Shown here piece by piece: positions 20,584-38,193 of a stretch of 60,920 nt of DNA (position 1 is its first letter; every line of letters begins with the position of its first letter). The notes below the pieces were generated by a model. The model saw nothing but the letters and a program-made list of their open reading frames with translations. It had not been told where the DNA came from and made no database searches. The translations under genes were made by a program, and so were the position numbers. The stretch is taken from IMG/VR virus record IMGVR_UViG_2744054872_000005. One strand, 5' to 3'. Source of the stretch: a virus (lineage: Duplodnaviria > Heunggongvirae > Uroviricota > Caudoviricetes).

Positions 20584-21903
20584 TTACACTGGTGTGTTCA
20601 GCAAATCGTTAACGGCATCAGATGACGGGTTACCTGCAGCCAGCGGTGCCGGTGCCCCCTGCATCAGACGATCCAGCGCAGTGTCACTGCGCGCCTGTGC
20701 ACTCTGTGGTGCAGCTGCCAGAATGCGGCGGGCCGTTTCCACGGTCATACCGGGGGGTTCGGCCAGCACGCGTGCCTGTTCTTCGCGTCCGTGAGCCTCC
20801 TCACAGTTGAGGATCCCCATAATGCGGCTGTTTTCTGCCGCAACCGCTGCGGTGATCTGCGCGTTCACATCCGGCTGCGCCGCGCTGGCGTTTTTGCCCT
20901 CCGTCGCTTGCACCACGCCAGTAACGTCAGCCTGCGAAGCAGTGGCTGAAACAGTTGTTGATTGAGTCTCTTTGGTCATTCGCCCTCCTGAGAGACGGGA
21001 TTTACGTGTATCCAGTGCATCACGCATGACGGTGATCGCATCGGTACTGTTAACAAGTTCATCAGCCAGTCCGGCATCAATGGCCTCCTGACCGCTGTAC
21101 ACTGCAGCCTCGGTATCCAGCACAGCCTGCACGGACAGGCCGGTATATGCCGATACCTTCTGTGCAAACATCCGGCGAGTTGCATCCATCCGGGACTGCA
21201 GTGTTTCCCGGACATCATCCGGTAGATGGCTGTAGGGGTTGCCATCCACCTTATGGCTGCCGCTGTAAATCAGCGTGATTTCCACGCCCTGTTTCTCCAG
21301 CGCAGCGCCGTAATTACTGTGAGCCATCATGACGCCGATGGAGCCTGTCCGGGCGGTCTGCGTGACCAGACGCCGGGAGGCGGCACTGGCAAGCAGCTGA
21401 CCTGCACTGCAGTTCATGTCGTTGGCCAGCGCCCATACCGGTTTTATGTCACGCACACGGGCGATGATGTCAGCGCAGTCAAATGCCCCCGCCACCATCC
21501 CGCCGGGCGTGTCCATATCGAGCAGAATGCCGTCCACCATCGGATCGCTGGCAGCCTGTTGCAGACGGGCGATAATGCCGTTGTAACCGGTCATCCCCGA
21601 ATGCGGCTGCAGCGCCCGCGTCCGGTTGACCAGCGTGCCGGAAACCGGCAGCACGGCGATGCCGTTCATGACCTGATAACTGCGGGCCTGTCGTGGTCCG
21701 TCATCATCACCGGATAACGCCAGCGTCGCGGGTGTCTCCGGGGCAGTCAGGCTGTCACCGGACACCGCATCTGTCAGGCGGCTGATCCCAAGCTGGCCTG
21801 CTAGCGCACAAAAGAAAACCCGCGCATAGGCGGGTTCAAGCATCAGCGGCTCATTAAAGGCCATGCTGGCAATATGCGGGAGATTACGCAGCTCTGCTGT
21901 CAC
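20584..21903 (-). CDS. C: capsid assembly protease C (with nested scaffold Nu3)
   Basis: 439 codons from a GTG start (VTAELRNLPHIASMAFNE); 20-nt overlap with the end of B as in lambda. Confidence 0.9.
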   Translation of the reverse strand: MTAELRNLPHIASMAFNEPLMLEPAYARVFFCALAGQLGISRLTDAVSGDSLTAPETPATLALSGDDDGPRQARSYQVMNGIAVLPVSGTLVNRTRALQPHSGMTGYNGIIARLQQAASDPMVDGILLDMDTPGGMVAGAFDCADIIARVRDIKPVWALANDMNCSAGQLLASAASRRLVTQTARTGSIGVMMAHSNYGAALEKQGVEITLIYSGSHKVDGNPYSHLPDDVRETLQSRMDATRRMFAQKVSAYTGLSVQAVLDTEAAVYSGQEAIDAGLADELVNSTDAITVMRDALDTRKSRLSGGRMTKETQSTTVSATASQADVTGVVQATEGKNASAAQPDVNAQITAAVAAENSRIMGILNCEEAHGREEQARVLAEPPGMTVETARRILAAAPQSAQARSDTALDRLMQGAPAPLAAGNPSSDAVNDLLNTPV

Positions 21904-22663
21904 TCTTCTCCTCCTCTGTTGATTGTCGCAGCCCGGATTCAAATGCCGCAGCCGCCCAGGCTGGCGGTTTAAGACCGGCTGCGCGGCGCTCCATCGTTTC
22001 ACGGACCTGCTGGGCAAAAATTTCCTGATAGTCGTCGCCGCGTTTTGCGCACTCTTTCTCATAGGTGCTCAGTCCGGCTTCTATCAGCATCACCGCTTCC
22101 TGTACTTCTTTCAGACCATCGATGGCCATACGACCGGAGCCTATCCAGTCACAGTTCCCCCAGGCACTGCGGGCTTCCTGAAAACTGAAGCGTGCTTTTG
22201 AAGGTAACGTCACCACGCGGCGAGCGATGGCCTCTTCCAGCCAGCACAGAAACATCTGGCTCGCCTGACGGGATGCGACGAATTTTCGCCGCCCCATAAA
22301 GTACGCCCACGACTCGTTCGCACTGGCCCGTGCCGTGGAGTAGCTCATCTGGGCGTAATTCCGGGAAAGCTGCTCATACGAGACACCCAGCCCGGCAGCG
22401 ATATACCGCAACAGTGACTGCTCAAACACGGAGTAGCCGTTATCCGTGTCCTGAGCCGTCTGCAGGTTCAGTGAGTCCCCCGGCATCAGGTGCGGCACTT
22501 TTGCGCCTCCCAGACGGACCGGTGCTGCGGCGTAATACGCGGCAATTTCACCAATCCAGCCGGTCAGCTTGTCCCGCTGCTCCTTACTGTTCGCGCCCAG
22601 AATAAAATCCATCGCTGACTGCGTATCCAGCTCACTCTCAATGGTGGCGGCATACATCGCCTT
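21884..22663 (-). pseudogene. B: portal protein B, 3' fragment (about residues 292-533), separated from its 5' part by the island
   Basis: Encodes ...KAMYAATIESELD... through the lambda gpB C-terminus; upstream of codon K the sequence is unrelated island DNA. Confidence 0.9.
22656..22663. repeat. left copy of 8-bp direct repeat ATCGCCTT (island attL core or target duplication)
   Basis: Identical octamer at 33480-33487; removing the island and one copy rebuilds an uninterrupted gpB reading frame ...SAIVKAMYAAT.... Confidence 0.85.
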
Positions 22664-22736
22664 TATGAAAAGACAGGAAAAAATAAAATTTAAAAACAGT
22701 ACATTACGAATGCTCAGACCTATCGTTTAAAGGAGT

Positions 22737-22758
22737 CGCAATACACACTGCAATACAC
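22737..22758 (+). repeat. two direct copies of GCAATACAC (candidate integrase arm-type sites, attL side)
   Basis: tcGCAATACACacTGCAATACACg; same motif three times at 33298-33350. Confidence 0.6.
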
Positions 22759-23694
22759 GATTATTTATAAGATGAGCGGCATCCGTCATAAAGCTGGTGG
22801 ATGCTTTTTCTATGCATATATGCACAGTTTTAGTGGGCGTTAATGTCGATATAGGGATCCCCATATCGAGATTGGATACCTGGCTTTTTTCCGGTTAACC
22901 TTTAATCAGGCTGGTGGGCTTTACCTGTTTTGTATGAGTGGTCATCATGACCATGTCATAACAAAAACCCCATATTCGTGGTTTTTCTGTGTCGGGGCTA
23001 TTCTGCTGTTGCCGTGCTGGTGGATATTCTCCGGTATGCGACTCCCCATATCGGCATCAGGCCCACCAGCGTGAAGCGTTTTTCATTTTTCGCGGGTATA
23101 AAAAATCGATGGGGCTGGCAGTCCGGAAGACGTCAGGTCACAGGGATTTGACCCGCCCCTCCCTGTGCATGAGCACAATAAGTAACCGAAGGCGGAATTC
23201 CGCCCTCGGTACTCACATATGAGAAACGATATTTCTTCCACAGATACCCTTTATTTGGGTATCGCGAGTAAGCCCCAAAATCTGGGTGTTACTCTTACTA
23301 CCCAAACTACGGGTAGTTTCCGTAGTTTCATGGTCGAGTTGCAGATCTGCAACTCACCCACCCGCCAACCCATTTTTGGGCCGTCGGGAATATCAACAAG
23401 TTAGCACAGAAATAACTCAGGCAGATACAAAACTCAACTTTGAGCTTTGCTTATTATTCAGTTGGTTAACATCCCTCAAAACTGAGGACTGTACCCAAAG
23501 CTATTTTTATAGCTCCGGCCTCAGCCGTTGGCTGTTCCCGAAAATATCAGTCAGTTACGTTAACCGCTAATTTCTGCCTTTGGTGTGAATACTGTCGCTT
23601 TAACCTACGGTAATTGTTCTGCCTCGGTGCGTGTCACCGCCGTAACCGCGCCAGTAAACCCCACAGATTCGTGGTTTTCCTGAATATCAGGAAT

Positions 23695-23979
23695 CTACCG
23701 CCGCAACCGTTCCGGTTTCTTCCACTGGTAAGTATTTTTCGCGCTCTCCCTCCGTTGTTGAGAACGGCGACGGTATGCCAGCAACTCAAGGACTCTGATC
23801 CGTATGTCGCGCATATCCACGCCGTTAAGCTCGATACCGTCACGGCGCATCATCTCAGCCACCACACGCGCGTAATTTTCGGCTATCACGCTGTCCGGCT
23901 GCGTGGCCTCCTGTTTGCTTGATGGTTGTTTGATTCCGGTAACGCGGCGGATTAATCCCAGCAATTCAGATTCTGTCAT
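23695..23979 (-). CDS. hypothetical protein (94 aa), last gene of island, 11 nt downstream of the TerS-like gene
   Basis: Charged, helical-looking ORF tightly coupled to the TerS-like gene; no recognisable domain. Confidence 0.45.
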   Translation of the reverse strand: MTESELLGLIRRVTGIKQPSSKQEATQPDSVIAENYARVVAEMMRRDGIELNGVDMRDIRIRVLELLAYRRRSQQRRESAKNTYQWKKPERLRR

Positions 23980-23990
23980 AGTGCGCTACG

Positions 23991-24542
23991 TTACTTGTCT
24001 TTATTCGGCTGCAACTTATCCGGCACATTTCCGGTAGTTTCCATCAGGTAATCAGCCAGTATCTGCGGGAGGTTGTCGTCAACTCCGGCACTGGCATTAC
24101 AGGCTTTAGCCACTTCCTTTTTAAGTCCATCCAGCATAGCCGGAGTCATCTGTGGGAAGCGCCTTTGCATGGTAAGCGGCAGGCTGTCCATGATAGATGA
24201 AATCTGACTCGCCAGTTTGGAAAGAACATACATACAAAACTCTGTATCAATAACGTCGCCGCGTTCGCGCTCGTTTTTAAGCTCCTGCGCTTCTGCCTGT
24301 GCTGTCAGTAATCTGATCCTGACGCGTAAAAGTTCATCGTCATCAATATCGCCCGTTTCGTTTGTAATCTGGCTAATTGCATTGTTAACCCGATTATCTA
24401 TTACACTGGCAACATCATAGAATGCCTCACGGCCCTTACGCTCGACGGGAATCACTCCCCACTTATCAAACGCAGTGGCGCTTACACGGCAACTTTTTGC
24501 CATGTTTTTTTTGTTCATCAGGTGCAATTTCATTGATACCAC
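23991..24542 (-). CDS. small terminase subunit homologue (lambda Nu1-like) encoded by the island
   Basis: 183 aa; C-terminal region aligns by eye with lambda Nu1 (e.g. LTAQAEAQELKNERERGDVIDTEFCMYVLSKLASQISSIMDSLPLTMQRRFP vs LTRAQADAQELKNARDSAEVVETAFCTFVLSRIAGEIASILDGIPLSVQRRFP); N-terminal wHTH region is divergent. Confidence 0.8.
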   Translation of the reverse strand: MVSMKLHLMNKKNMAKSCRVSATAFDKWGVIPVERKGREAFYDVASVIDNRVNNAISQITNETGDIDDDELLRVRIRLLTAQAEAQELKNERERGDVIDTEFCMYVLSKLASQISSIMDSLPLTMQRRFPQMTPAMLDGLKKEVAKACNASAGVDDNLPQILADYLMETTGNVPDKLQPNKDK

Positions 24543-24644
24543 AACTTAATTACTGTTTCAGGTTGGTGTATTGATTGTATTTTTCTCTTCTTATTCATAG
24601 AGATAGAGCGAACAACAAAACCACCACCAGCACCCGAAAAAGGC

Positions 24645-24710
24645 TCATAAATAGCGAAAACCCGCGAGGTCGCCGCCCCGTAACCTGTCGGATCGCCGGA
24701 AAGGACCCGC
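24645..24710 (-). other. island cos site: 66-bp exact copy of helper cosN and flanking sequence (cosN GGGCGGCGACCT at 24667-24678, minus strand)
   Basis: Identical to 37110-37175; sequence toward the island TerS gene (cosB side) is unrelated to the helper cosB. Confidence 0.85.
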
Positions 24711-24734
24711 CAGCCAGAACGGGCCCTAATTTCA

Positions 24735-25118
24735 TCAACCAATCAACTTATAGCGACCATCCCGTGCATTGCGACGTACACGCTCAATCTTGAGGCATAG
24801 CGCCGCACCTGGCTTTTTTGGGACAGGTACGCGGCAATATTCAGAAGCGCGAGGAATATTATTTATCCAGTCGATCACTTCACTTAAATACCAGGCCTTA
24901 CGCCCTTCCGTAACCTGCACTCGCTCCGGGAACTCTCCACTAGCCTCAAGGTTTAGCAGTGTACGCCGACTCAGGGTTGTAATTTCCATCACCTGATTCA
25001 TATCAACAAGGCGCTCGCTTAAACACATTTTGTCAGCGATAGCTTTTAATTCCTCTACAGCTGGATTCGGGTACATCATTTCGGCAATTGGCTTAAGGTC
25101 ATTGTAATCATTCTGCAT
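24735..25118 (-). CDS. AlpA-family HTH protein (second copy, 127 aa) in the island morphogenesis module
   Basis: C-terminal MEITTLSRRTLLNLEASGEFPERVQVTEGRKAWYLSEVIDWI resembles the AlpA/phage regulatory HTH. Confidence 0.55.
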   Translation of the reverse strand: MQNDYNDLKPIAEMMYPNPAVEELKAIADKMCLSERLVDMNQVMEITTLSRRTLLNLEASGEFPERVQVTEGRKAWYLSEVIDWINNIPRASEYCRVPVPKKPGAALCLKIERVRRNARDGRYKLIG

Positions 25119-25129
25119 TGTATCCCCCT

Positions 25130-25459
25130 TTACACACGAGCCAGCGGCTGAACAGAAATACCTGAGCCAACAAACGCTGCAACCTTTACTGACAGTTCTT
25201 TAACAGACTCAGGCCAGTTCAGAGCATCAACATTTAAGACACCTGTCTTATAGACCTGAGCCTGTGTTTTTTTCGCGGTGTCGATTTGTACAGCGGAAAC
25301 ATAAACCGCTTTACCTACGCTCGAACCATCCCATACCACCAGTGCACCATGCATCAGTGGCGTAAATGCAGGAATTACCCCTTTATTAGCTGAAAATATC
25401 CCCAACGTAGTAACCAGTGCTTCAGTGCCAGCCATGAGTTCAGTGTAATGAGTAGCCAT
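25130..25459 (-). CDS. head decoration protein homologue (lambda gpD-like), island-encoded
   Basis: 109 aa; shares TPLM, VWDG and C-terminal AF.G..IS motifs with gpD. Confidence 0.7.
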   Translation of the reverse strand: MATHYTELMAGTEALVTTLGIFSANKGVIPAFTPLMHGALVVWDGSSVGKAVYVSAVQIDTAKKTQAQVYKTGVLNVDALNWPESVKELSVKVAAFVGSGISVQPLARV

Positions 25460-25468
25460 TGCTCCCCC

Positions 25469-26515
25469 TTAACCAATGCGAACGGTAACAAAACGATTGA
25501 TGCGGGCCGGTATTGGCTGTGGTGCAGAGTGCGTTTGTACGTACTCAATAGCCGGATCTCCAGGCACAATGTAGTTTTTCGGTGCGAGTTCGGCTTTAGT
25601 CAGCCCCATTCGGATTAGCTCCGGATCCTGAATACCGCCATAAGCGACAATCCCCTGAAGAGCCGTATTGCCAAGCACCATCAAATCAGGATCAAGGAAA
25701 TGTTTTTCAGTTCCGTCCTCGTCGGTATAACGCCCGCTGTATACAACAATCGCAACATCGCCCATATACCCTTTAAAACTCACCGAATCACCAAGGTCTT
25801 TAAGGGCCGTTTCCAGTTCGGAATTAGAACCACGGCGGGTATCCAGAGCCTCTTTTATCGCTCTGAATGAACGGTATTTCTTCCATACATTACCGCCCAT
25901 AATGATGATATTAGTGACGCCCTCACTAAATTCTGCGTAGCTCTCAATATCATCATTTGGATCAAAAGTTTCTTTATCCTTACCTGACCACTCAGCACCG
26001 CCAGACTGAGTGATGATATTTTGTGGTTTAATATTCCAGTCCAGTTCATAACGTTCAATACCATCGCCTTCAATGATATTTTTCCCCGTTGTGATTGCCT
26101 GAACAGCAAGCCATTCAATACGTGCACGTATAGCTTTAGCCTGATTTACAATCGCCTGTTTAACTTTAATATTACGCGCCCCAAAAGCATTGTATTGTTC
26201 AGGTGATACACCAGCAGGGCGCACAGCTAACTTATTTGGATCAATGCTGCTTTTCGGTTTCATATAGCCAGGGCGAATTGTTTTTGATTCGTATCCCTCA
26301 TCTCGTGAAACTTTACTGCCCACCATAGGAGAGCAAAACGCCGCGATCGGGATATTTGGATCGTCGATCGTATCAAGAATAATGTCTCTCGATTCAAACA
26401 TTACCGAGCGAGTGAAAAACAAACTGGTAAACAACGCATTTAATTTTTTTTGCACATCTTCAGCATTAGCCACCTGCACAAGCTGTGTAGGCGAATATAA
26501 ATCAACCATACTCAT
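25469..26515 (-). CDS. major capsid protein homologue (lambda gpE-like), island-encoded
   Basis: Clear collinear similarity to gpE (TQSGGAEWSGKDKETFDPNDDIESYA, ...AIKEALDTRRGSNSELETALKDLGDSVSFKGYMGDVAIVVYSG); start chosen at MSMVDLYSPTQL with AAGAGG RBS. Confidence 0.85.
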   Translation of the reverse strand: MSMVDLYSPTQLVQVANAEDVQKKLNALFTSLFFTRSVMFESRDIILDTIDDPNIPIAAFCSPMVGSKVSRDEGYESKTIRPGYMKPKSSIDPNKLAVRPAGVSPEQYNAFGARNIKVKQAIVNQAKAIRARIEWLAVQAITTGKNIIEGDGIERYELDWNIKPQNIITQSGGAEWSGKDKETFDPNDDIESYAEFSEGVTNIIIMGGNVWKKYRSFRAIKEALDTRRGSNSELETALKDLGDSVSFKGYMGDVAIVVYSGRYTDEDGTEKHFLDPDLMVLGNTALQGIVAYGGIQDPELIRMGLTKAELAPKNYIVPGDPAIEYVQTHSAPQPIPARINRFVTVRIG

Positions 26516-26726
26516 CCTCTTTACATTCATTACAAATAATTGTGAATATATTCTATTACCGATGTCTGCTATGCGAATACATGCAACCAAGTGCAATGTT
26601 GTATAAAATCTGCCGTGACAACTTCAGTGCTGATAATTCGTGTTAATGTATTTACTTCCTTTGGTCGGGATTTATGTAGCATGCCGGAAAATCTATTTTC
26701 TTCCGGCATTTTTTTATTTGCAGAAT

Positions 26727-27149
26727 TTAAAACGGTATATTATCGCCGTACGGATCATCATTCCCCGACTGTTGTTTTGCCCTGTTCAGTGCGTCAGTAG
26801 CCTGGCCCTGTTGACCTTTTTTGCCGCCCGGTCGCGCCGTTCTGGCACTGATTACACTGTCTGCGATAACCTGCCAGCACTGCCGCGTTTCGCCGTTCTG
26901 GCCTGTCCACTGGCTTACCTGCATGTTACCCGCCACGCTCACCAGTTCGCCTTTGTGGTGTTTTGCCAGTGCGTCGGCCTGTCTGCCAAACGCCAGGACG
27001 GATAACCACATCGTCGCCGTTCCGTCATCTGCCTGGCTGCACGGAAGTGGGACCGCCATACTCGCCATCGTCATTTGTGTACCCTTGCTGGTGGTCTTTA
27101 ACTGCGGGTCAGCCACCAGCCGCCCGTAAGCCGCTATCTGTGCTGTCAT
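26727..27149 (-). CDS. ssb: single-stranded DNA-binding protein (SSB-like)
   Basis: OB-fold-like N-terminus, Gly/Gln-rich linker and acidic C-terminal tail ending DNIPF (compare SSB DDDIPF). Confidence 0.55.
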   Translation of the reverse strand: MTAQIAAYGRLVADPQLKTTSKGTQMTMASMAVPLPCSQADDGTATMWLSVLAFGRQADALAKHHKGELVSVAGNMQVSQWTGQNGETRQCWQVIADSVISARTARPGGKKGQQGQATDALNRAKQQSGNDDPYGDNIPF

Positions 27150-27391
27150 GCTGTCTGCTCTCCGGTTTTAACGTTGATGGTTGTCACCTGTTCCGCTTCG
27201 GCAATCTCCCGTTCTGTCAGCGTGGCAAAGTTTGCAGCTGCCGTTGTCATGAATGCGCTAATCAGTTCGGGATGTGCTTTCGCATATCCTTCCCCGGCGT
27301 TGCGGTCGATGATTTTTATCGACACCCTTAACCAGTGTTCCGTCAAATCAAGGGCGTGCGATTGTGATTTTTTTGTGTGCTTCGCTGTCAT
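27146..27391 (-). CDS. hypothetical protein (81 aa)
   Basis: ORF between the iteron region and ssb with overlapping stop/start. Confidence 0.4.
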   Translation of the reverse strand: MTAKHTKKSQSHALDLTEHWLRVSIKIIDRNAGEGYAKAHPELISAFMTTAAANFATLTEREIAEAEQVTTINVKTGEQTA

Positions 27392-27442
27392 AGGCTTTAT
27401 CTCACAGCAGTAAATTAAAATTTTTGCGTTTTAACCCTTCAC

Positions 27443-27664
27443 CTGTTCACCTTTTGATATTTTATCTTTTAATTCATAATGTTAAGGGGTGAACAGTTTC
27501 ACAAAAACTATTCACCAACTGTTCACCACTGTTCACCCTTGAAGCTCAATAAACAATCAAAAAGGTGAACAGTGAATAGTTTGGTGAACAGTTCATAAAT
27601 AACTGTTCACCCTATAACATACTGATACAAAAGATATTTATGACAGGGTGAACAGTGGTGAACA
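27443..27664. repeat. iteron cluster: at least 9 copies of GGTGAACAG / CTGTTCACC in both orientations (candidate island replication origin)
   Basis: Copies at about 27443, 27488, 27519, 27529, 27564, 27584, 27603, 27647 and 27656 in an AT-rich stretch just 3' of the primase gene. Confidence 0.75.
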
Positions 27665-27678
27665 GTTATTCCATAAGT

Positions 27679-29511
27679 TTAATTTTTGCTATCGTCATTA
27701 GTGACCGATACACATGATGGCATCCAGTCTTCTGATTCCTCCGTCAGTGTCACGTTTGAACGCAAACCGTGCTTCGTTTTCCGTTTCATATACTCCCTGC
27801 CATATTCCGCCATTGCCCCCGGCATATCTTTACCGAAGCGCGTCAGTGTTACAGGTTTACCAAACCCATGTGCCCTCATATAAGCCAGATAGGCATGATA
27901 GAGATACCTGCGTGGGCTGAATGGCACAATTTCAGCATTACCCACTAACAGGCCATCACACATTACCGACGCCATGAGATAGCCGCAGAAGTCCACCAGC
28001 GAATCCCCCTCTCGCTTTATCGCCAGTGCTTCTTCAGATTTCTGCTGCTCATATAACAGGCGTCTGGCTTCGTCCTGGTCAGCAAACCGTGTAAGCAGAT
28101 GGCGAATCACTACCGCCAGCTCACCTTCTATTTTTTCCGCCAGCATTGGATCGCGTTCGTTCTCCGGTACAACTTCCGAAAAATTGAATATCACCCGACG
28201 ACGTGAGATCCCCCCGCTGCGGTCACTGAATGACATGGCGTTATTGTTAACCGCCAGCACTACTGCCGGAATACGCGTTGAGTAGGGGGCTTTGTGTTTC
28301 GGGTCAATTGCCACCTTGTCACCGCCTGTAATAGCCTTAATCCCTGCCCCATCACCAGCGTAGCGGGTCATATCCGGCATGATAATCAGCGAAAAGCCAA
28401 CCACTAACGCGCGTTCCCTTGCATCTTCCAGCGCCTTCATGCTTGCCGATACTGTGTTGGCCTTACCCGCCAGCATGGTGCAAATCTCCGCCATCACGCT
28501 TTTACCACTTCCCCCTGGACCTGTTACCTCAATGAATAACTGCCAGTCGTACCGGTTCGCCAGCACCATGAATAATGCAGCCAGTACGCGATCCGCCTTG
28601 CGGTCATTCTCAGCCACCGAACGGCGTAACCACTTCCAGAAATTCGGCGCATGTGTTGCCAGCGTTTCCCCCTCTGCTGGTGGGCTGAAAGGTAATTCAC
28701 TGGCAATTAACAACCAGTCGTTTTTGTTATGCTCCCGAAAATTACCTGTTCTGGTATCAAATACCCCGTTACTGAATCCAATCAGGTTACGGGCTGTATT
28801 CCCCATAACAGGCAAACTTAACTTCATGGTATCGACCGCCGATTTAATGGCGTTCTGCGAATAGCTGATCTCCGCATCAATGAAAATCTGCGCCATAGCT
28901 CGCTGTAATTCTTTATCCTGTACTGGCTCCCATACAACGCCGTTGTAATGGTGAACAGTGTCAGAGTCAGCATGAATCGCCAGTTCACCGCCATAATGTG
29001 CCAGGAGAACTTCGCCGCGTTGACTTGCTCCCATCTGGTTAAGCGCCAGTGATGAAGCGTTATCGTCTTTTACCCGCTCTTTTTTCTTTACAGGCAGTTC
29101 AACTACCTTTTTCTTTTCCGCCTGCTCTGCCCGTTCACGTTCCAGATATTCGCGCCAGTTCTCCCGTTTCTGGCTGTGCATTCCTTCAGGATAATAATCA
29201 GCATCCCTGACACCTGCCGCTGCCAGTTTCTGCCCGATGGTATTAACAAGCCCCGGACGCAATAACCCCGCCTGATAGAGACGCACGCGATAGCGTCCGT
29301 CCGGTACGATTTGCAGGTTGTCCAGTTCGGCAAGTTGTTGCTCTCCAAGCCAGACAGGTGGCACGTTATCGCCAGCCAGTCGCCCGTCCTGTTCCTGCCA
29401 CTGATTCGCATGTGCCCACGCATCACTACCCGCAAAAATGATGACTTCCGTCATTTTGTCACGCGGCTGGTATTTTAAATTTGGCGCTTTTTTCATTTCT
29501 GCTCTCTCCAC
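27679..29511 (-). CDS. primase/replication initiation protein (P4 alpha or PICI Pri-Rep-like) with P-loop NTPase domain
   Basis: 610 aa; Walker A GPGGSGKS; placement next to int-alpA and directly upstream of the iterons. Confidence 0.75.
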   Translation of the reverse strand: MERAEMKKAPNLKYQPRDKMTEVIIFAGSDAWAHANQWQEQDGRLAGDNVPPVWLGEQQLAELDNLQIVPDGRYRVRLYQAGLLRPGLVNTIGQKLAAAGVRDADYYPEGMHSQKRENWREYLERERAEQAEKKKVVELPVKKKERVKDDNASSLALNQMGASQRGEVLLAHYGGELAIHADSDTVHHYNGVVWEPVQDKELQRAMAQIFIDAEISYSQNAIKSAVDTMKLSLPVMGNTARNLIGFSNGVFDTRTGNFREHNKNDWLLIASELPFSPPAEGETLATHAPNFWKWLRRSVAENDRKADRVLAALFMVLANRYDWQLFIEVTGPGGSGKSVMAEICTMLAGKANTVSASMKALEDARERALVVGFSLIIMPDMTRYAGDGAGIKAITGGDKVAIDPKHKAPYSTRIPAVVLAVNNNAMSFSDRSGGISRRRVIFNFSEVVPENERDPMLAEKIEGELAVVIRHLLTRFADQDEARRLLYEQQKSEEALAIKREGDSLVDFCGYLMASVMCDGLLVGNAEIVPFSPRRYLYHAYLAYMRAHGFGKPVTLTRFGKDMPGAMAEYGREYMKRKTKHGLRSNVTLTEESEDWMPSCVSVTNDDSKN

Positions 29512-29792
29512 GCGGCAATCATATTTTTCAGTTCCTGTAGTTTTTTATCCACATCCACACGTGACACATGGTTATTTCTGGAAGTCGGGATTTTCCGCCG
29601 GAATCTGCAAATAAAGATCTCCACGTTCAGCGAACTAAGAAATGAATAGCCATCACGGATAAAATACACACGGTCAAACATCAGTTCTTTTACCGTTACT
29701 CTGTTACCGTTCTTATCCAGATAAATAGCGCCGGGGATAATTTGGGGGTGTGCATAACCGCTGGCAGTCAAGCCAGATAAATACGTTCTCAT
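29493..29792 (-). CDS. hypothetical protein (99 aa)
   Basis: Overlaps primase start by 19 nt; no recognisable domain. Confidence 0.45.
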   Translation of the reverse strand: MRTYLSGLTASGYAHPQIIPGAIYLDKNGNRVTVKELMFDRVYFIRDGYSFLSSLNVEIFICRFRRKIPTSRNNHVSRVDVDKKLQELKNMIAAWREQK

Positions 29793-29798
29793 GATTAT

Positions 29799-30119
29799 TT
29801 ATCCCCGATTTGAATCAGTATTCGCTTTCTTTATAGCATTTAATGCATCTGTGGCATTTTCAATGGTGCACCGTAACGAAATATCAAAATGTCCAAGCAT
29901 TGCCAGTAACAAACCGATATTACCCATATCAATGCGCATGGCCTTTTCGTCATATTCCTCATTTTCTGACGCATGCCACATCAGGCTACCAATTGACGCA
30001 ACAGCCATTGATATATTGTCAGTAGCCCCATCCGCAGCGGAATAAACCTTTTTAGCAATATCATGCTCACAGTTAAAATGCGGATTAATCAGGTACTGGT
30101 AATTTGACATATCAGGCAT
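29799..30119 (-). CDS. hypothetical protein (about 106 aa from MPDMSNYQ)
   Basis: Internal ATG at 30119 has AGGGGG 8 nt upstream; the listed ORF extends upstream to 30236 through the operator region. Confidence 0.4.
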   Translation of the reverse strand: MPDMSNYQYLINPHFNCEHDIAKKVYSAADGATDNISMAVASIGSLMWHASENEEYDEKAMRIDMGNIGLLLAMLGHFDISLRCTIENATDALNAIKKANTDSNRG

Positions 30120-30404
30120 GGCACACCCCCTGGCGAATACGGGCGGCGAATACAGCAACACAACCGGACGGGCAGCGGTTACGCGCTTCACGTTCCGTCC
30201 AGGCGGTGACGTGGATGATTTGAGATTCTCCGGCACTCAGTGCCAGAAAACGCCACACAAAGGCCGTTTGTGTGTGTACAAGGTGTGGGGTATGCTGTCT
30301 TACAGCCATAATCGTTACTCCAGTTAACGGTTTGGTTAGAAGCCCCGTTACTGCTCCAACAGTGCGGGGCTTCGTCGTTTCAATTGCTGAATTGCATGTA
30401 TCAG

Positions 30405-30475
30405 CCCTTGTGGTATTCAGATTACATTTTGGTGAATACCATTTCAAGTCTTTTTTGGTATTCACTTTTGTATTA
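30405..30475. promoter_or_regulatory. divergent promoter/operator region with three GGTATTCA / TGAATACC repeats
   Basis: tggtattcag, tggtgaatacc and tggtattcac between the divergent replication operon and the DUF3950-like gene. Confidence 0.55.
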
Positions 30476-30508
30476 CACTGCATCCCGTTATTAATCGGAG
30501 GTGCAAAC

Positions 30509-30814
30509 ATGTCCACGAGTTCTGTTAACAATAAATCACAGCAACTGAATGCCAGATTTCCACATGAAGTAGTGAGTGGCATTGAGGCATCCCTACAGCC
30601 AGGGGAAACTAAAGCGAATTTTATAGTTACGGCTGTACGCGGTGAGATCGCCAGCCGCCAAGCAGAAGGCAGCGGAGAAAATCCCCTTGTGTCGTCACTG
30701 GATGCCCTGGCTAAGGTCGAACAAATCGGCATCAAAGCCGCCGAGGAGATCGGGCAACTCATCACCGTCGCGCGTGAAGAACTCCAGCGACGCAAGGTCA
30801 AAGAGCATGAATAG
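30509..30814 (+). CDS. DUF3950/YlcI-like putative DNA-binding protein (101 aa), candidate island regulator
   Basis: GGAGGTG RBS; N-terminus MSTSSVNNKSQQLNARFPHEVVSGIEASLQPGETKANF aligns with the helper YlcI MSTKNRTRRTTTRNIRFPNPMIEQINIALDQKGSGNF. Confidence 0.55.
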   Translation: MSTSSVNNKSQQLNARFPHEVVSGIEASLQPGETKANFIVTAVRGEIASRQAEGSGENPLVSSLDALAKVEQIGIKAAEEIGQLITVAREELQRRKVKEHE

Positions 30815-30871
30815 CCAATATCAGCGCCATAGTTTGAGGAACGCAGGCGCATTGCTTTACAGGACAGCACC

Positions 30872-31051
30872 ATGAGCGACACAGAATCAACCAAAACACC
30901 ATCACCAACTCGTAAGAGACGACGCAAAAATATAGCGCATGAACATGAATCAGAAAGATTCGCACCTTGTTCGTTTGCTCTTGAGAAATTCCTTAAAGAG
31001 CACAGGAAAAAGCTCTCGTTGCAAACCTTGGAACGAACCAAATCTGACTGA
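30872..31051 (+). CDS. hypothetical small basic protein (59 aa)
   Basis: ORF downstream of the DUF3950-like gene, followed by two terminator hairpins; below the 60-aa cut-off of the ORF track. Confidence 0.3.
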   Translation: MSDTESTKTPSPTRKRRRKNIAHEHESERFAPCSFALEKFLKEHRKKLSLQTLERTKSD

Positions 31052-31118
31052 TCACATTGCCCACCAGCCGCAAATGTGGCATTGTTGGTGATGCGTTCAA
31101 GTTTAGTGTGTATCCATT

Positions 31119-31148
31119 GGCGACCGCCCCCGGTCGCCTTTGTTTTGT
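31119..31148 (+). terminator. rho-independent terminator (first of two)
   Basis: ggcgaccg-ccccc-ggtcgcc followed by tttgttttg. Confidence 0.6.
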
Positions 31149-31724
31149 CACTGAATGCGGTTACCAAAGTAAAACTCAGGCTGATATTCACGTATCAGCC
31201 TTTTTTCTTCTTCCTCCAGCTCACGCTTTTTGCGCTTACATGCCTGTAGCTCCCTCCCCTTCTCGCTGGCACTTATTTGATATTGCTCTTTACGGCGGGA
31301 AAAATCCTGTAATGCACCCCACGGGATACCATAAGCCCCCGTTTTTCTGATACCTGGTATCACATTTCTGAATACCCAGTTACTGAAACGATGGGCGAAC
31401 GTGCCAGGAGTAACAGCTTTCCGACTTCTGGCGATTAGTTTGTAGAACCCTGACTCGCATACCGTTCGCATTGTTTGATTTCCACCTGGGGTGGGTATTA
31501 CACTCCCCCTTTTCATCATCATCGAGACGGCGTAACGCAACCTTGTGATCAACAATTTCCAGCGCAGCGCACACGTCAACGGCAACAAACCACGGATCGC
31601 CGTTCACATACACCACGCGAACGCTCACACCATCAAAGCGCAGAACGACCAGATCACGAATATCACAGAATTTTTTCACTGGACGAGCGTACCCCTTGCC
31701 CGTCACGGCAATATTTTTATTCAT
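31148..31724 (-). pseudogene. Bro-N domain (antirepressor-like) gene interrupted by a +1 frameshift in a G5/C5 run
   Basis: ORFs 31380-31724 and 31148-31588 together read ...PWFVAVDVCAALE...DDDEKG // SVIPTPGGNQTMRTVCESGFYKLI...NVIPGIRKTGAY; frame change at ccccc 31504-31508. Confidence 0.65.
31178..31207 (+). terminator. rho-independent terminator (second of two)
   Basis: aggctgata-ttcacg-tatcagcct followed by ttttttt. Confidence 0.6.
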
Positions 31725-31778
31725 CGCGTTTTACCCTATAGACAAAAACCCCTCGTGATGAGGGGCGTTATTTACTGG

Positions 31779-32036
31779 TTATTGCTGTGTTGTTTTTCCA
31801 GGTTTCCATCCAGGATGCCACTCACCACGGATCCATGCCTGAACCTCTGAAAGTCGATACCCTGCAGCACGTTCACCGATCTTGATACGTCGCGGGAATT
31901 TACCTGCCTGCTCCATTTTCCAGCGTGTTGAGTTTGCCAGCGTGGTAAGTGCTATGCACTCTTTTTCACGAATGAACCGATCAATGTCCTTCATTGTGCG
32001 CAAATCGTTTTCATCAACAAGAGAATAAATTGCCAT
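31779..32036 (-). CDS. alpA: AlpA-family transcriptional regulator/excisionase
   Basis: 85 aa HTH ...GKFPRRIKIGERAAGYRLSEVQAWI; immediately downstream of int. Confidence 0.8.
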   Translation of the reverse strand: MAIYSLVDENDLRTMKDIDRFIREKECIALTTLANSTRWKMEQAGKFPRRIKIGERAAGYRLSEVQAWIRGEWHPGWKPGKTTQQ

Positions 32037-32037
32037 A

Positions 32038-33279
32038 TCACACCACCTCTTTATTAAGCTCGATAACGTTGTTGTTAAATCCTGCTATCGTATTAAGGTA
32101 ATTAACCCACATATTAAGCACCTCAAGTTTTTTCTTTATATGCCTGCTTTTATTGTAAACACCAGCAACCCCTTTCACTTTATGACCTAAAAGAAGTTCG
32201 ACAATATAAGGATCCGCCCCCATATCATTAAGCGTAGTGGAAAATGTGCGCCTGAAATCATGTATGCACCACAAGCCATTAGTATCATGACCAAGACGCC
32301 TGCATATTCTGTTTGCAGCCCCTGTTATTGTCGCCCTTTGCAAAGCACAACCGACAACATAACCGCGATTTTTTGTTTCTGCGTAAAGATTAACGATCCA
32401 TTGTTTTATTCCGTCAGGAACAGGCCTTACTATAGCCTCCTTGTTTTTGCTGTGCTCTTTTGGGACTGTCCATACCCAGTTTTTTAAATCCCATTCGTCC
32501 CAGGTGGATAGCCTCGCCTCCTGCTGTCGGCAACCAAACACCAGGCAGATAACCATTATTCTTCGGTTATATATTGATGACAGAGTTAGCAAATTATTAC
32601 CGTAAGCATAAGACCATACATCAGCGGTTTCATTGATATTAAGAACGCGATCCCTTATACCGGATGAGCGCCCGACATAACTTACGTTAATATCTCCAAA
32701 GGGATCGCACGCGATGTATTGCCTGACGCGACAAAAACGCAACGCCTGTTTGATATCAAGAAAAATTGCACCAGACATAACAGGCGCATTTTTTTTGATC
32801 CTGTCAAAGACGGTAAGCCATGTGTGTAATTTGCACTGTTCTATAGCCATATCACCGATATAGGGGAAGATATGCTTTTCAAATCGTTTTATTAAATATT
32901 CATGCTCTTTTCTGGCTGTTGTGGCGTGATTATCGTACCAGTAAAACAGCGCATCCCTTACGGTCACTGGTTGCATGGTTTTTTCGGCAGCAAGTTTTAT
33001 TTGCCTGCGTGGGTCCAGATTTTCAGCCAGCCATTCACGGCACTGATCACGCATGCGCCTGGCTGTTGCAAGAGACATATCAGGATAGCGCCCAAGTGTA
33101 AGCCATACCGGAGGGGATTCCCTGCCACCAAGACGATAGTAAAAAACAAAGCTGATCCCCCCAACCATGCTTACACGCACAGACAACCCGCGCCCATCCG
33201 CTATTGTTTTTTGTTTGTCCTGCCGTTTTCCGACAAGACTCTTTAACAGTTTGTCACTGAGTTTGTTTTCAATAGCCAT
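32038..33279 (-). CDS. int: tyrosine integrase (P4-type)
   Basis: 413 aa; N-terminal arm-binding-type domain and C-terminal catalytic region (HDFRRTF...LLGHK...Y); adjacent to the island right junction. Confidence 0.9.
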   Translation of the reverse strand: MAIENKLSDKLLKSLVGKRQDKQKTIADGRGLSVRVSMVGGISFVFYYRLGGRESPPVWLTLGRYPDMSLATARRMRDQCREWLAENLDPRRQIKLAAEKTMQPVTVRDALFYWYDNHATTARKEHEYLIKRFEKHIFPYIGDMAIEQCKLHTWLTVFDRIKKNAPVMSGAIFLDIKQALRFCRVRQYIACDPFGDINVSYVGRSSGIRDRVLNINETADVWSYAYGNNLLTLSSIYNRRIMVICLVFGCRQQEARLSTWDEWDLKNWVWTVPKEHSKNKEAIVRPVPDGIKQWIVNLYAETKNRGYVVGCALQRATITGAANRICRRLGHDTNGLWCIHDFRRTFSTTLNDMGADPYIVELLLGHKVKGVAGVYNKSRHIKKKLEVLNMWVNYLNTIAGFNNNVIELNKEVV

Positions 33280-33297
33280 TAAAAGCCCTCAAGAGAT

Positions 33298-33350
33298 TTG
33301 CAATACACACCCATCCCGATCGCCAATTTGCAATACACATTGCAATACAC
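33298..33350 (+). repeat. three direct copies of TGCAATACAC (candidate arm-type sites, int side)
   Basis: tTGCAATACACac ... tTGCAATACACat-TGCAATACACaa, between int and the junction. Confidence 0.6.
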
Positions 33351-33479
33351 AAAACCGCGAAAAACTGGAAGAGTGATGAACGGTCATCAAAAGTATGGAA
33401 AACGACATTCCAGACGCAGCAAGGGTTTCAGTGGAGTTGGCGAACGATGCGGGCAACTACGGTGAGATGATAGACATAA

Positions 33480-36408
<2,929 letters not shown>

Positions 36409-36434
<26 letters not shown>

Positions 36435-36954
36435 TCAGCAACCCCGGTATCAGTTCATCCAGCGCGGCTGCTTTGTTCATGGCTTTGATGATATCCCGTT
36501 TCAGGAAATCAACATGTCGGTTTTCCAGTTCCGGAAAACGCCGCTGCACCGACAGGGGGATCCCGTCGAGAATACTGGCAATTTCACCTGCGATCCGCGA
36601 CAGCACGAAAGTACAGAATGCGGTTTCCACCACTTCAGCGGAGTCTCTGGCATTTTTTAGCTCCTGTGCGTCGGCCTGCGCACGCGTAAGTCGATGGCGT
36701 TCGTACTCAATAGTCCCTGGCTGGAGATCTGTCTCGCTGGCCTGCAGCAGTTCTTCAACTTCCCGGCGCAGCTTTTCGTTCTCAATTTCAGCATCCCTTT
36801 CGGCATACCATTTTATGACGGCGGCAGAATCATAAAGCACCTCATTACCCTTGCCACCGCCTCGCAGAACGGGCATTCCCTGCTCCTGCCAGTTCTGAAT
36901 GGTACGGATGCTCGCGCCGAAAATGTCAGCCAGCTGCTTTTTGTTGACTTCCAT
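36409..36954 (-). CDS. Nu1: terminase small subunit Nu1
   Basis: 181 aa, MEVNKKQLADIFGASIRTIQNWQEQGMPV... as lambda Nu1. Confidence 0.97.
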
Positions 36955-37109
36955 TGTTCATTCCACGGACAAAAACAGAGAAAGGAAACGACAGAGGCCA
37001 AAAAACCCGTTTTCAGCATCTGTCGTTTCCTTTCTTTTCAGGTGGTGTTTTAAATAAAAACATTAAGTTACGGCGAAGAAGAACGGAAACGCCTTAAACC
37101 GGAAAATTT

Positions 37110-37175
37110 TCATAAATAGCGAAAACCCGCGAGGTCGCCGCCCCGTAACCTGTCGGATCGCCGGAAAGGACCCGC
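37110..37175 (-). other. helper prophage cos region (cosN GGGCGGCGACCT at 37132-37143, minus strand), cosB toward Nu1
   Basis: Matches the lambda cohesive-end sequence and flanks by recall; 178 nt upstream of Nu1. Confidence 0.9.
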
Positions 37176-37342
37176 AAAATGATAATAATTATCATCTACA
37201 TGTCACAACGTGCATCTACGCCATCAAACCACGTCAAATAATCAATTATGACGCAGGTATCGTATTAATTGATCTGCATCAACTTAACGTAAAAACAACT
37301 TCAGACAATACAAATCAGTGACACTGAATACAGGGCAACCTC

Positions 37343-37537
37343 ATGTCAACGAAGAACAGAACCCGCAGAACAACAACCCGCAACATCCGCTTTCCTAACC
37401 CAATGATTGAACAAATTAACATCGCTCTTGATCAAAAAGGGTCTGGGAATTTCTCAGCCTGGGTCATTGAAGCCTGCCGTCGGAGACTAACGTCAGAAAA
37501 GAGAGCATATACATCAATCCAAAGTGATGATGAATAA
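37343..37537 (+). CDS. ylcI: DUF3950 family protein (YlcI-like)
   Basis: 64 aa MSTKNRTRRTTTRNIRFPNPMIEQINIALDQKGSGNFSAWVIEACRRRL, as in DLP12/lambdoid ylcI by recall. Confidence 0.7.
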   Translation: MSTKNRTRRTTTRNIRFPNPMIEQINIALDQKGSGNFSAWVIEACRRRLTSEKRAYTSIQSDDE

Positions 37538-37899
37538 ACATCCCGGTTTCTTCCACCATCGCACCGGAAAAGCAACTATGAGGGTAACCCTGCGTCTGTC
37601 AGCACAGTAAAACCCGGTGTGCATCGTTTTTGATTATTCCCGCACACTCACGCAGAAGGAATTCCCCGTCGGGCTACGGTCATGGTTCATGCGGGAATAC
37701 GGCGACGATACAGCGCAGCTAAAAGGGTAATAGACAGAAAGAGCGGTTTATTTCATTCCACAGGATTCTGAGTGTCCCCAACTTCCTCCAATAGTCTGAG
37801 CGTACACCTATATAGTTTTAATTTTCATCAATCCATTTAACTATCGTTTAATTGTTGTCACATAGGATTCCGCCGTTTTTAACAATGCAGGATAATAAG

Positions 37900-38193
37900 A
37901 TGAAAAAAATGTTGTTTTCTGCCGCTCTGGCAATGCTTATTACAGGATGTGCTCAACAGACGTTTACTGTTGGAAACAAACCGACAGCAGTAACACCAAA
38001 GGAAACCATCACCCATCACTTCTTCGTTTCGGGAATTGGACAGGAGAAAACTGTTGATGCAGCCAAAATTTGTGGCGGCGCAGAAAATGTTGTTAAAACA
38101 GAAACCCAGCAAACATTCGTAAATGGATTGCTCGGTTTTATTACTTTAGGCATTTATACTCCGCTGGAAGCGCGTGTGTATTGCTCACAATAA
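37900..38193 (+). CDS. bor: Bor lipoprotein (serum-resistance associated)
   Basis: MKKMLFSAALAMLITGCAQQ lipoprotein signal; lambda Bor-like; opposite strand to Rz as in lambda. Confidence 0.9.
   Translation: MKKMLFSAALAMLITGCAQQTFTVGNKPTAVTPKETITHHFFVSGIGQEKTVDAAKICGGAENVVKTETQQTFVNGLLGFITLGIYTPLEARVYCSQ

Follow-up and report, generated by a model that had tools for sequence, protein, structure and literature searches.

A portal-embedded satellite island of Escherichia coli with a putative N15-class small terminase and a candidate R3-type packaging site

The 60,920-nt viral record IMGVR_UViG_2744054872_000005 (Caudoviricetes; the whole stretch is called the window here) holds a lambda-like prophage, the helper, into whose portal gene B a satellite island of 10,824 bp plus one copy of a short core is inserted (22656-33487, minus strand). 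The island has its own cos site and, directly after it, a gene (terS, 23991-24533, minus strand) for a small terminase (TerS) of the Nu1 family, 180 amino acids (aa) long. Our reading, to which we give a probability of about 0.55, is that this TerS has a DNA-binding domain of the class found in phage N15, and that together with a single R3-type site in the island cosB it forms a cognate pair that would recruit the helper large terminase (TerL, gpA) for the packaging of island DNA. Judged by the comparisons below, cos and terS make up a genuine, coherent module for packaging in a satellite class that is already known.

The pair would consist of a full-length Nu1-family TerS, with a winged-helix DNA-binding domain of the N15 class, and an R3-type site made up of GGTGGTGGT followed by TTTGTTGTT at bp 51-68 from the cohesive end, which is the distance at which the small terminases of lambda and N15 anchor TerL for the nicking of cosN. 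Once the island is induced, its TerS would attach to the island R3 and deliver the helper gpA to the island cosN and cosQ, whose sequences are those of the helper, with the C-terminus of TerS as the preferred route of recruitment. Concatemers of island DNA would next be cleaved and loaded into helper capsids, presumably as multimers (4 x 10.8 kb = 43 kb). As the island lacks all R sites of the helper Nu1, its packaging would depend on the island TerS.

The island class, its embedded configuration and the general idea of packaging redirection are already published, so that the element as such is of a known kind. De Sousa et al. count among the core components of phage-inducible chromosomal islands (PICIs) a small terminase that redirects packaging (PMC10085698), and cos PICIs are known to retain phage cosQ and cosN while altering cosB (PMC6739421); redirection, which a first-pass annotation of this DNA had proposed, is thus the standard expectation for PICIs (PMC10085698, PMC6739421). 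The half of that proposal dealing with DNA recognition is well supported by comparison, through an element at the R3 position and its N15-class reader, while the half on TerL contact is not supported by the argument given for it, the TerS tail being only 29% identical to that of the helper. What appears to be new here is the N15-type binding domain, the element in R3 register, its conservation, and the purifying selection on terS; a literature search returned no paper analysing the cos or TerS specificity of TerS-type islands.

The cos region and the candidate R3 site

Positions in cos are counted from the first G of the cohesive end (bp 1), following lambda numbering. The cohesive-end sequence GGGCGGCGACCT occurs on the minus strand at 24667-24678 (island cosN) and 37132-37143 (helper cosN), and these are the sole sites in the window with one mismatch or fewer (0.22 expected by chance). 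Around them 66 bp of the island (24645-24710) are base-for-base identical to the helper (37110-37175), as the first-pass annotation had it, and the match stops at both ends. The block spans -32 to +34 and comprises cosQ, cosN and the first 22 bp past cosN; we take cosQ to be GGGTCCT at -30 to -24, as in lambda (24702-24708, minus strand, within CGGGTCCTT). In the helper, the minus strand at 37.1 kb reads cosQ, cosN, three R-site cores, Nu1, gpA, W and the start of portal gene B, an arrangement whose cos presumably aligns almost base for base with that of lambda. The helper cosB (36955-37131, minus strand) has lambda-type R3, R2 and R1 cores (CGTTTCC or its complement) at 37085, 37024 and 36984. 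It is followed by the genes for the 181-aa Nu1 (36409-36954, minus strand; Pfam PF07471, E 6e-100; PDB matches to lambda TerS chains 6hn7_B and 1j9i) and for the 641-aa gpA (34509-36434, minus strand), an open reading frame (ORF) annotated as TerL in the matching genome and the presumed nuclease and motor serving the island.

The island cosB region (bp 13-145; 24534-24666, minus strand) is 45 bp shorter than that of the helper. The two cos regions are shared up to +34 and then diverge, as an alignment suggested by the first-pass annotation confirms, and the element at the R3 position of the island is unlike the helper's. The island cosB had been called unrelated to the helper's. This holds in that no CGTTTCC core or complement is present in 24534-24666, yet the 49 bp past +34 still match at about 57% without gaps, and a candidate R3 stands at R3 coordinates. 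A search with 6-nt seeds for the repeats of R-site type that had been anticipated gave no internal direct or inverted repeats and no lambda-style repeated R sites in the island cosB, only the single R3-position element. For this reason the island cosB can be called 'simple', as in N15 and as proposed for islands of the Rpp type (PMC9026076).

The candidate R3, GGTGGTGGTTTTGTTGTT, occupies bp 51-68 (24611-24628, minus strand) and begins with GGTGGTGGT at bp 51-59 (24620-24628); R3 of lambda lies at bp 50-65, and that of N15, GTTGTTGTT, at bp 51-59. Its conservation was assessed by aligning cos sites by their distance from the cohesive end, using the window island with three further E. coli islands embedded in portal genes, chromosomal islands of E. 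coli, gene-E-embedded islands of Enterobacteriaceae (whose TerS cluster is named Enterobacteriaceae/Enterobacter/Citrobacter by its sources), and islands of Superficieibacter and Kosakonia. All aligned sites have GGTGGTGGT at bp 51-59, TTGTT at bp 61-65 and AATACACC(A/C)AC near bp 105-117, and they vary at bp 36-50, at bp 70-104 and in the spacer between cosQ and cosN. A protein-based scan of viral contigs returned 80 loci, mostly prophage calls from isolate genomes that are no evidence of packaging into virions. The pattern GGTGGTGGTTTTGTT(G/T)TT was found in register at bp 51-68 in 61 of 63 further IMG/VR loci (33 distinct cos variants), and the element is also in register in nine other loci and in the island of E. 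coli IHE3034, the loci together spanning E. coli, Enterobacteriaceae islands, Superficieibacter and Kosakonia. In these alignments of about 70 islands, which represent five genera, the R3-position element hardly varies. A conserved TTTTGTTGTT is preceded by a GGT tract of 3 to 5 units, the total spacing to cosN being almost always kept; such variation could reflect slippage that disables or retunes the candidate site.

The second conserved element, CAATACACCAACC (bp 105-117; 24562-24574, minus strand), belongs to the cos consensus, is also present in the Superficieibacter (L018) and Kosakonia (L019) islands, and lies at the position of lambda R2. It was not labelled R2, as it is not a copy of the R3-like element. 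A promoter scan gave no sigma-70-like promoter between the island cos and terS.

The exact 66-bp identity is not a trait of the island family. The cosQ sequence (CGGGTCCTT) and the cosN core are kept in almost every cos compared (one of the 63 IMG/VR loci reads GGGGCC, and one site of the E. coli island EcCICFT073 starts with TGGG), and the cosQ-cosN spacer comes in at least four types, the lambda type being found in only 2 of the 63 other islands. Two further islands in portal genes, L015 and L017, do not match the helpers that contain them at several positions. The same 66 bp, unannotated, occur at 100% identity in many sampled E. coli genomes and amount to an ordinary lambda-type cos end. 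The identity is best read as a lineage-specific state, perhaps the outcome of recombination with a lambda-type cos, and the requirement is probably for cosQ and cosN alone rather than for the whole block.

The island TerS and its N15-type DNA-binding domain

The earlier assignment of the gene next to cos to the Nu1 family is upheld by a match to Pfam Phage_Nu1 (PF07471; E 1e-24, 87.4 bits against a cut-off of 30, residues 32-148), by 37% identity to the helper Nu1 over the full length (E 4e-36), and by the RefSeq product name, 'terminase small subunit'. Identities were also determined by region, in lambda Nu1 numbering, with ranges reflecting two alignments and two ways of counting gaps. In the DNA-binding domain (residues 1-55) the island protein is 56-60% identical to gp1 of N15 and 33-42% to the helper Nu1; the corresponding values are 38% and 25% for the linker (56-99), 56% and 51% for the oligomerisation domain (100-140), and 24-32% and 29% for the TerL-binding region (141-181). 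These values do not agree with the proposal that the C-terminal region contacting gpA is conserved and the N-terminal region divergent, since conservation is highest in the central oligomerisation domain, whereas over the last 41 residues identity reaches only 29%.

The closest TerS among sequenced phages is N15 gp1, with 48% identity. The two proteins have in common the recognition segment AFDKWGV and a wing five residues shorter than that of lambda; the C-terminal half of N15 gp1 is lambda-like (78-80%), whereas that of the island protein is 29-51% identical. The DNA sites correspond in a similar manner. R3 of N15 has been mapped to bp 48-59, GAGGTTGTTGTT, of which bp 54-59 are the most important (PMC4669245). 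The island is identical to it at 8 of 13 bases (bp 48-60), its triplets are in the same phase, and both have T at bp 56; each island triplet has G in place of T in the middle, and bp 54-59 read GGTGGT. No remote inverted copy of R3 was found within the island terS, in a scan that recovered the published rR2 of N15 at bp 249-257. Lambda terminase cannot package DNA with an N15-type cosB (PMC4669245), which fits with the island needing its own TerS, and the N15 binding domain is functional with lambda TerL in hybrid phages (PMC4669245, PMC9026076).

Two distant marine prophages, of Glaciecola and Thalassotalea, encode TerS proteins 38-40% identical to that of the island, with the same type of binding domain, and have GTTGTT-type motifs past a cos-like sequence. 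In one of these prophages (L020) two ORFs of the size of TerL and portal genes (649 and 529 aa) come after that for TerS. The binding-domain type and a G-N-T triplet R3 thus travel together. Taken with the data above, assignment of the island DNA-binding domain to the N15 specificity class is well supported by comparison, and so is an island-specific recognition of cos.

Of 5426 complete E. coli genomes, 761 have a terS-cos segment (at least 80% query coverage), strains of O157:H7 and O55:H7 among them, so that the island family is both catalogued and common. An alignment-based scan of genome contigs found four relatives, and an exact-peptide scan found none. Among terS alleles of E. coli islands the ratio of non-synonymous to synonymous substitution rates (dN/dS) is 0.09-0.15 for the whole gene; the binding domain has 0.03-0.04 and the C-terminal third 0.16-0.36, values that point to strong purifying selection with the binding domain as the most constrained part. 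Across genera, the binding domains of island TerS proteins are 72-77% identical and the last 41 residues fall to 32-37%. The pattern fits a constant DNA-reading module joined to an exchangeable partner-binding module. The TerS of the Superficieibacter island (L018, 4001-4504) is a natural chimera, with a binding domain of the island/N15 type and a C-terminal half of the lambda/N15 type that is 83% (residues 100-140) and 63% (141-181) identical to the helper Nu1 of the window; this hybrid suggests that modules are swapped to match helpers.

An Rpp identity was rejected for two island proteins: RppA (L014:2660-3094) matches the island TerS at only E = 6, and the 127-aa helix-turn-helix (HTH) protein encoded upstream of cos matches an AlpA structure only, not RppC (6HLK/6HN7).

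Recruitment of the large terminase

Use of a helper TerL would follow from the absence of a TerL gene from the island together with the shared cosN and cosQ. How the helper TerL is recruited is less clear, with two alternatives to direct recruitment by the TerS C-terminus. Under the first, the island TerS would co-assemble with the helper Nu1 through the central oligomerisation domain into a mixed complex like those formed by Rpp, in which the island subunit reads the island R3 and the helper subunit contacts gpA; terminase would then be diverted from the helper cos, resulting in interference. This arrangement would account for the central domain being better conserved (51%) than the TerL-binding tail (29%), and terS of the island stands at the genomic position where RppA is encoded in EcCICFT073; heterocomplexes of Rpp and TerS are proven in sister islands, where the phage TerS is required (PMC6739421, PMC9026076). 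It is harder to reconcile with a C-terminus that is full-length, constrained (dN/dS 0.16-0.36) and swapped between lineages (L018), all of which would be difficult to explain if it bound nothing. RppA is without sequence similarity to the island TerS (E = 6), and the crystallised heterodimer of RppC and TerS(1-98) shares a DNA-binding domain (PMC6739421), whereas the domains of island and helper are 33-42% identical and of N15 and lambda type, respectively. We consider a mixed complex possible but rather doubtful.

A second alternative concerns which phage effectively acts as helper. In lambda Nu1, TerL is bound by about 40 C-terminal residues (PMC9026076), and over this tail the island TerS is 49% identical to the Nu1 of PhiR5_1, its closest phage match, against 29% for the resident helper; the gpA N-terminus of PhiR5_1 is only 55% identical to that of the resident gpA. 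For comparison, lambda-type Nu1 and the TerS of CFT073 prophage 4, classed as 21-type (TerS-21) by Murialdo and Feiss (PMC9026076), are 32% identical over the tail. The cosQ-cosN spacer of PhiR5_1 (L023, 150-410), CATATGGACCC, occurs also in cos1 of EcCICFT073 and in many chromosomal TerS-type islands, and there are hints that the PhiR5_1 lambdoid lineage is the usual helper. The island TerS might accordingly be tuned to a PhiR5_1-like TerL, with the resident prophage serving mainly as an integration site and packaging the island weakly through the shared cosQ and cosN, much as plasmids with a PICI cos but no matching reader of cosB are still transferred at reduced levels (PMC6739421). However, the 66-bp block of the window is exactly that of the resident helper and not of the PhiR5_1 type. 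All four portal-embedded composites examined lie in prophages with terminase genes like those of lambda in size and layout (a 181-aa TerS annotated nohD and a 641-aa TerL). The cosB is of lambda type in three of the four helpers, while a cos core was not found in that of L016, and an identity of 49% is itself modest. A mismatch between island and resident helper is, in our view, unlikely.

That terS and cos are passive relics captured from a phage is highly improbable: PICIs do capture helper late genes (PMC10111431) and the capsid-gene homologues of EcCICFT073 are dispensable for transfer (PMC6092414), but terS is maintained as an intact ORF of 167-180 aa in hundreds of genomes and five genera at a dN/dS of about 0.1, in the loci compared it always adjoins a cos with the conserved R3-position element, and no sequenced phage has an island-type TerS above 48% identity, which speaks against recent capture.

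Several observations weigh against the proposed cognate pair of N15-class TerS and single R3. The 29% identity of the tail, no better than that of lambda to the 21-type TerS and below the value for PhiR5_1, means that direct binding to the resident gpA is not predicted by sequence; direct recruitment of the resident gpA is plausible rather than indicated. The winged-helix fold rests on weak profile similarity and on the order of secondary-structure elements. A profile of the island TerS family gave lambda TerS 1-98 as its best PDB match (6hn7_B, E 0.0057; 1j9i and 7lw0 at E of about 0.85), and a PDB search with the single sequence gave no match. The AlphaFold2 model (23-sequence alignment) has the order H-H-E-E-H at low confidence (predicted local distance difference test score 60.7, predicted template modelling score 0.32), and a Foldseek search of the PDB with it returned noise only (best E = 1). 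Strict spacing of the R3-like element is not absolute, since island L008 lacks two GGT units (-6 bp) and one IMG/VR locus lacks one (-3 bp), bringing the element nearer to cosN; in another locus the tract is degenerate. Terminase of N15 specificity packages the DNA of lambda as well (PMC4669245), so that discrimination may be one-sided. The island of IHE3034, whose TerS is 90% identical to that of the window and which has the same cos1 and the same GGTGGTGGTTTTGTTGTT, showed very poor transfer (at most 40 transductants/ml) in the sole published test (PMC6092414), though a suitable helper may have been missing. Sequence and comparison establish the parts of the proposed pair, their positions, their conservation and their N15-type affinity; the support is comparative throughout.

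A broader and more tentative proposal is that a large branch of enterobacterial PICIs adopted the N15-class specificity, the third documented in the lambda family, as a portable cassette of TerS and R3, exchanging only the C-terminal module of TerS so as to suit the TerL of different helpers. Because an N15-type TerS reads lambda R3 while lambda TerS cannot use an N15-type cosB, insulation would be one-way and non-interfering, distinct from Rpp: the helper could not package the island without the island TerS, and that TerS would not have to interfere with helper packaging. Such a strategy would suit a satellite that resides within its helper.

Genes for virulence and defence are spread by PICIs, the TerS-type module is present in about one-seventh of complete E. 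coli genomes, and Rpp is the sole mechanism worked out for the cos PICIs of this species. An N15-class TerS and R3 working with a borrowed TerL would constitute a second common route of packaging piracy. The island proteins would form a natural series of TerS chimeras, with a constant binding domain and a variable TerL-binding tail, matched by a series of R3 variants at the same coordinates (TTTCCGTTC, GTTGTTGTT and GGTGGTGGT). Both might serve in studies of TerS-DNA and TerS-TerL specificity among lambda-like phages, as well as in the design of packaging-specific delivery particles.

Relation to known satellites and other features of the island

The nearest relatives in layout are the Rpp islands of the EcCICFT073 type (Fillol-Salom 2018, 2019; Murialdo and Feiss 2022). 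EcCICFT073 ends with genes for a capsid protein, a decoration protein and a 137-aa protein, followed by cos1, RppA (144 aa), a 93-aa ORF and an inverted cos2. The window island shares this 3' order (E-like capsid, D-like decoration protein, small HTH or hypothetical protein, cos1, specificity gene, 93-94-aa ORF), as well as phage-type cosQ and cosN, a different and simple cosB, and a presumed reliance on a lambdoid helper TerL. Chromosomal TerS-type islands have the EcCICFT073 layout, except that the slot of RppA directly after cos1 is taken by a Nu1-like TerS of 178 aa. The differences are that Rpp proteins have 135-153 aa and no TerL-binding tail, whereas the TerS of the window is full-length; that EcCICFT073 has a second cos, which the window island lacks; and that its cos1 has ACCACCACC at bp 55-63 where the window has GGTGGTGGT at bp 51-59. 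This ACCACCACC (L014, 2607-2623) is the proposed Rpp R3 core and is the reverse complement of GGTGGTGGT, which could reflect a small inversion, shared cos1 ancestry or coincidence. A second, inverted cos2 just after terS or rppA is found in islands L008-L013 (about 7728, minus strand) and L014 (3309, minus strand), with a phage-like cosB of different R-type sequences.

The IHE3034 island belongs to the same family as that of the window but adjoins clpS on the chromosome and probably has an inverted cos2, as its gene layout resembles that of L008-L013; the window island is portal-embedded, with one cos and a lambda-type cosQ-cosN spacer. The E. coli PICIs of IHE3034 and 18098 were listed as 'TerS-encoding' by Fillol-Salom in 2018, where cos and TerS specificity were not analysed (PMC6092414). 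N15 (Feiss et al. 2015) is similar in its binding domain, its single triplet element at bp 51-59 and a cosB free of R-sequence repeats. It differs in having GTT GTT GTT where the island has GGT GGT GGT followed by TTTGTTGTT, in the rR2 within its terS, in the distance from cosN to the start codon (88 bp against 145 bp in the island), and in possessing its own TerL. The resemblance to the pathogenicity islands of Staphylococcus aureus is one of analogy, not membership: there too a satellite TerS pairs with the helper TerL and packaging is diverted to satellite DNA, but packaging is of the headful (pac) type and the phage TerS is inhibited by another protein, Ppi (PMC6739421), whereas the window island is of the cos type.

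The TerS of those staphylococcal islands belongs to a different protein family. The portal ORF of the helper is interrupted (...QSAIVKA | MYAATIES...), its N-terminal part ending at about 33480 and its C-terminal part starting at 22657 (gene fragments 33428-34309 and 21884-22657). A direct repeat, AAGGCGAT, is present at both island junctions (22656-22663 and 33480-33487), and with the split gene it marks site-specific integration of a 10,824-bp element. Exact excision would rebuild the portal gene, and until then the helper would be without portal production. The window is 99.9% identical to sequences of E. coli GZEC065, J-8 and SCEC020022.

By its features the island is a Gram-negative PICI in helper-embedded configuration (HE-PICI), a class described in 2023 by Tommasini, Mageeney and Williams with gene B among four main target genes (PMC10111431). 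The late-gene insertion, split portal ORF, short attachment core and shared orientation are those of an HE-PICI. Integrase, AlpA and primase-replication genes in about 10 kb, together with the lack of a full set of virion genes, are those of Gram-negative cos-type PICIs, as are a phage-like cosQ and cosN beside a cosB unlike the helper's. Four island copies come to 43.3 kb, a length that would suit a head of lambda size. The model HE-PICI of that 2023 paper, 11capE, is without terS and has a 258-bp cos region 90% identical to the helper's, whereas the window island has terS and shares only 66 bp.

The main island genes are all on the minus strand, co-oriented with the helper late genes, except for one small annotated ORF of the YlcI/YnfO family that reads the opposite way. 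Their order is integrase, AlpA-like regulator, a frameshifted BRO-N gene, an Icd-like gene, a DUF4222 gene, a D5_N/DUF5906 primase, SSB, a lambda-E-like capsid gene, a gpD-like decoration gene, the gene for the 127-aa AlpA-type HTH protein, cos, terS and a 94-aa ORF. Only 11 bp separate terS from the 94-aa ORF, and the window island has a single cos. In phages TerL would follow terS, but here the next gene is the 94-aa ORF, which is the arrangement of a satellite and not of a phage. No portal, protease, TerL or tail genes were found among the island ORFs (ORF list, Pfam and the annotation of the matching genome). Capsid-forming PICIs have their own complete capsid and packaging set, including portal, protease and head-tail connectors. 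With E-like capsid, D-like decoration and TerS genes only, the island was not assigned to that group.

Among the related islands, those on the Enterobacteriaceae contigs L002-L007 (at about 9100-9900) have terS followed by two reverse-strand genes, beyond which lie a truncated capsid ORF of the lambda-E type and genes for head completion and tail. In the Kosakonia island L019 (5739-6503) terS is followed by a truncated E-like capsid ORF, head-completion and tail genes. The capsid call has Pfam support in L002-L004 and L006 and is by size alone in L019. These islands appear to be embedded in capsid gene E and not in the portal gene.

Three further features of the window island were observed. 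The BRO-N gene (31148-31724) carries a frameshift and is annotated as a pseudogene in the matching genome, and it is intact in the related islands L015-L017. About 1 kb at the attL-side island end (22664-23690) has no convincing ORF and no Rfam match, an Rfam scan having found no family in 22000-38000; the segment may hold integrase arm sites or an uncharacterised RNA. Directly downstream of the primase gene is a 36-nt inverted repeat (27504-27539 and 27645-27680) built of TGTTCACC-type iterons, which is probably the island replication origin.

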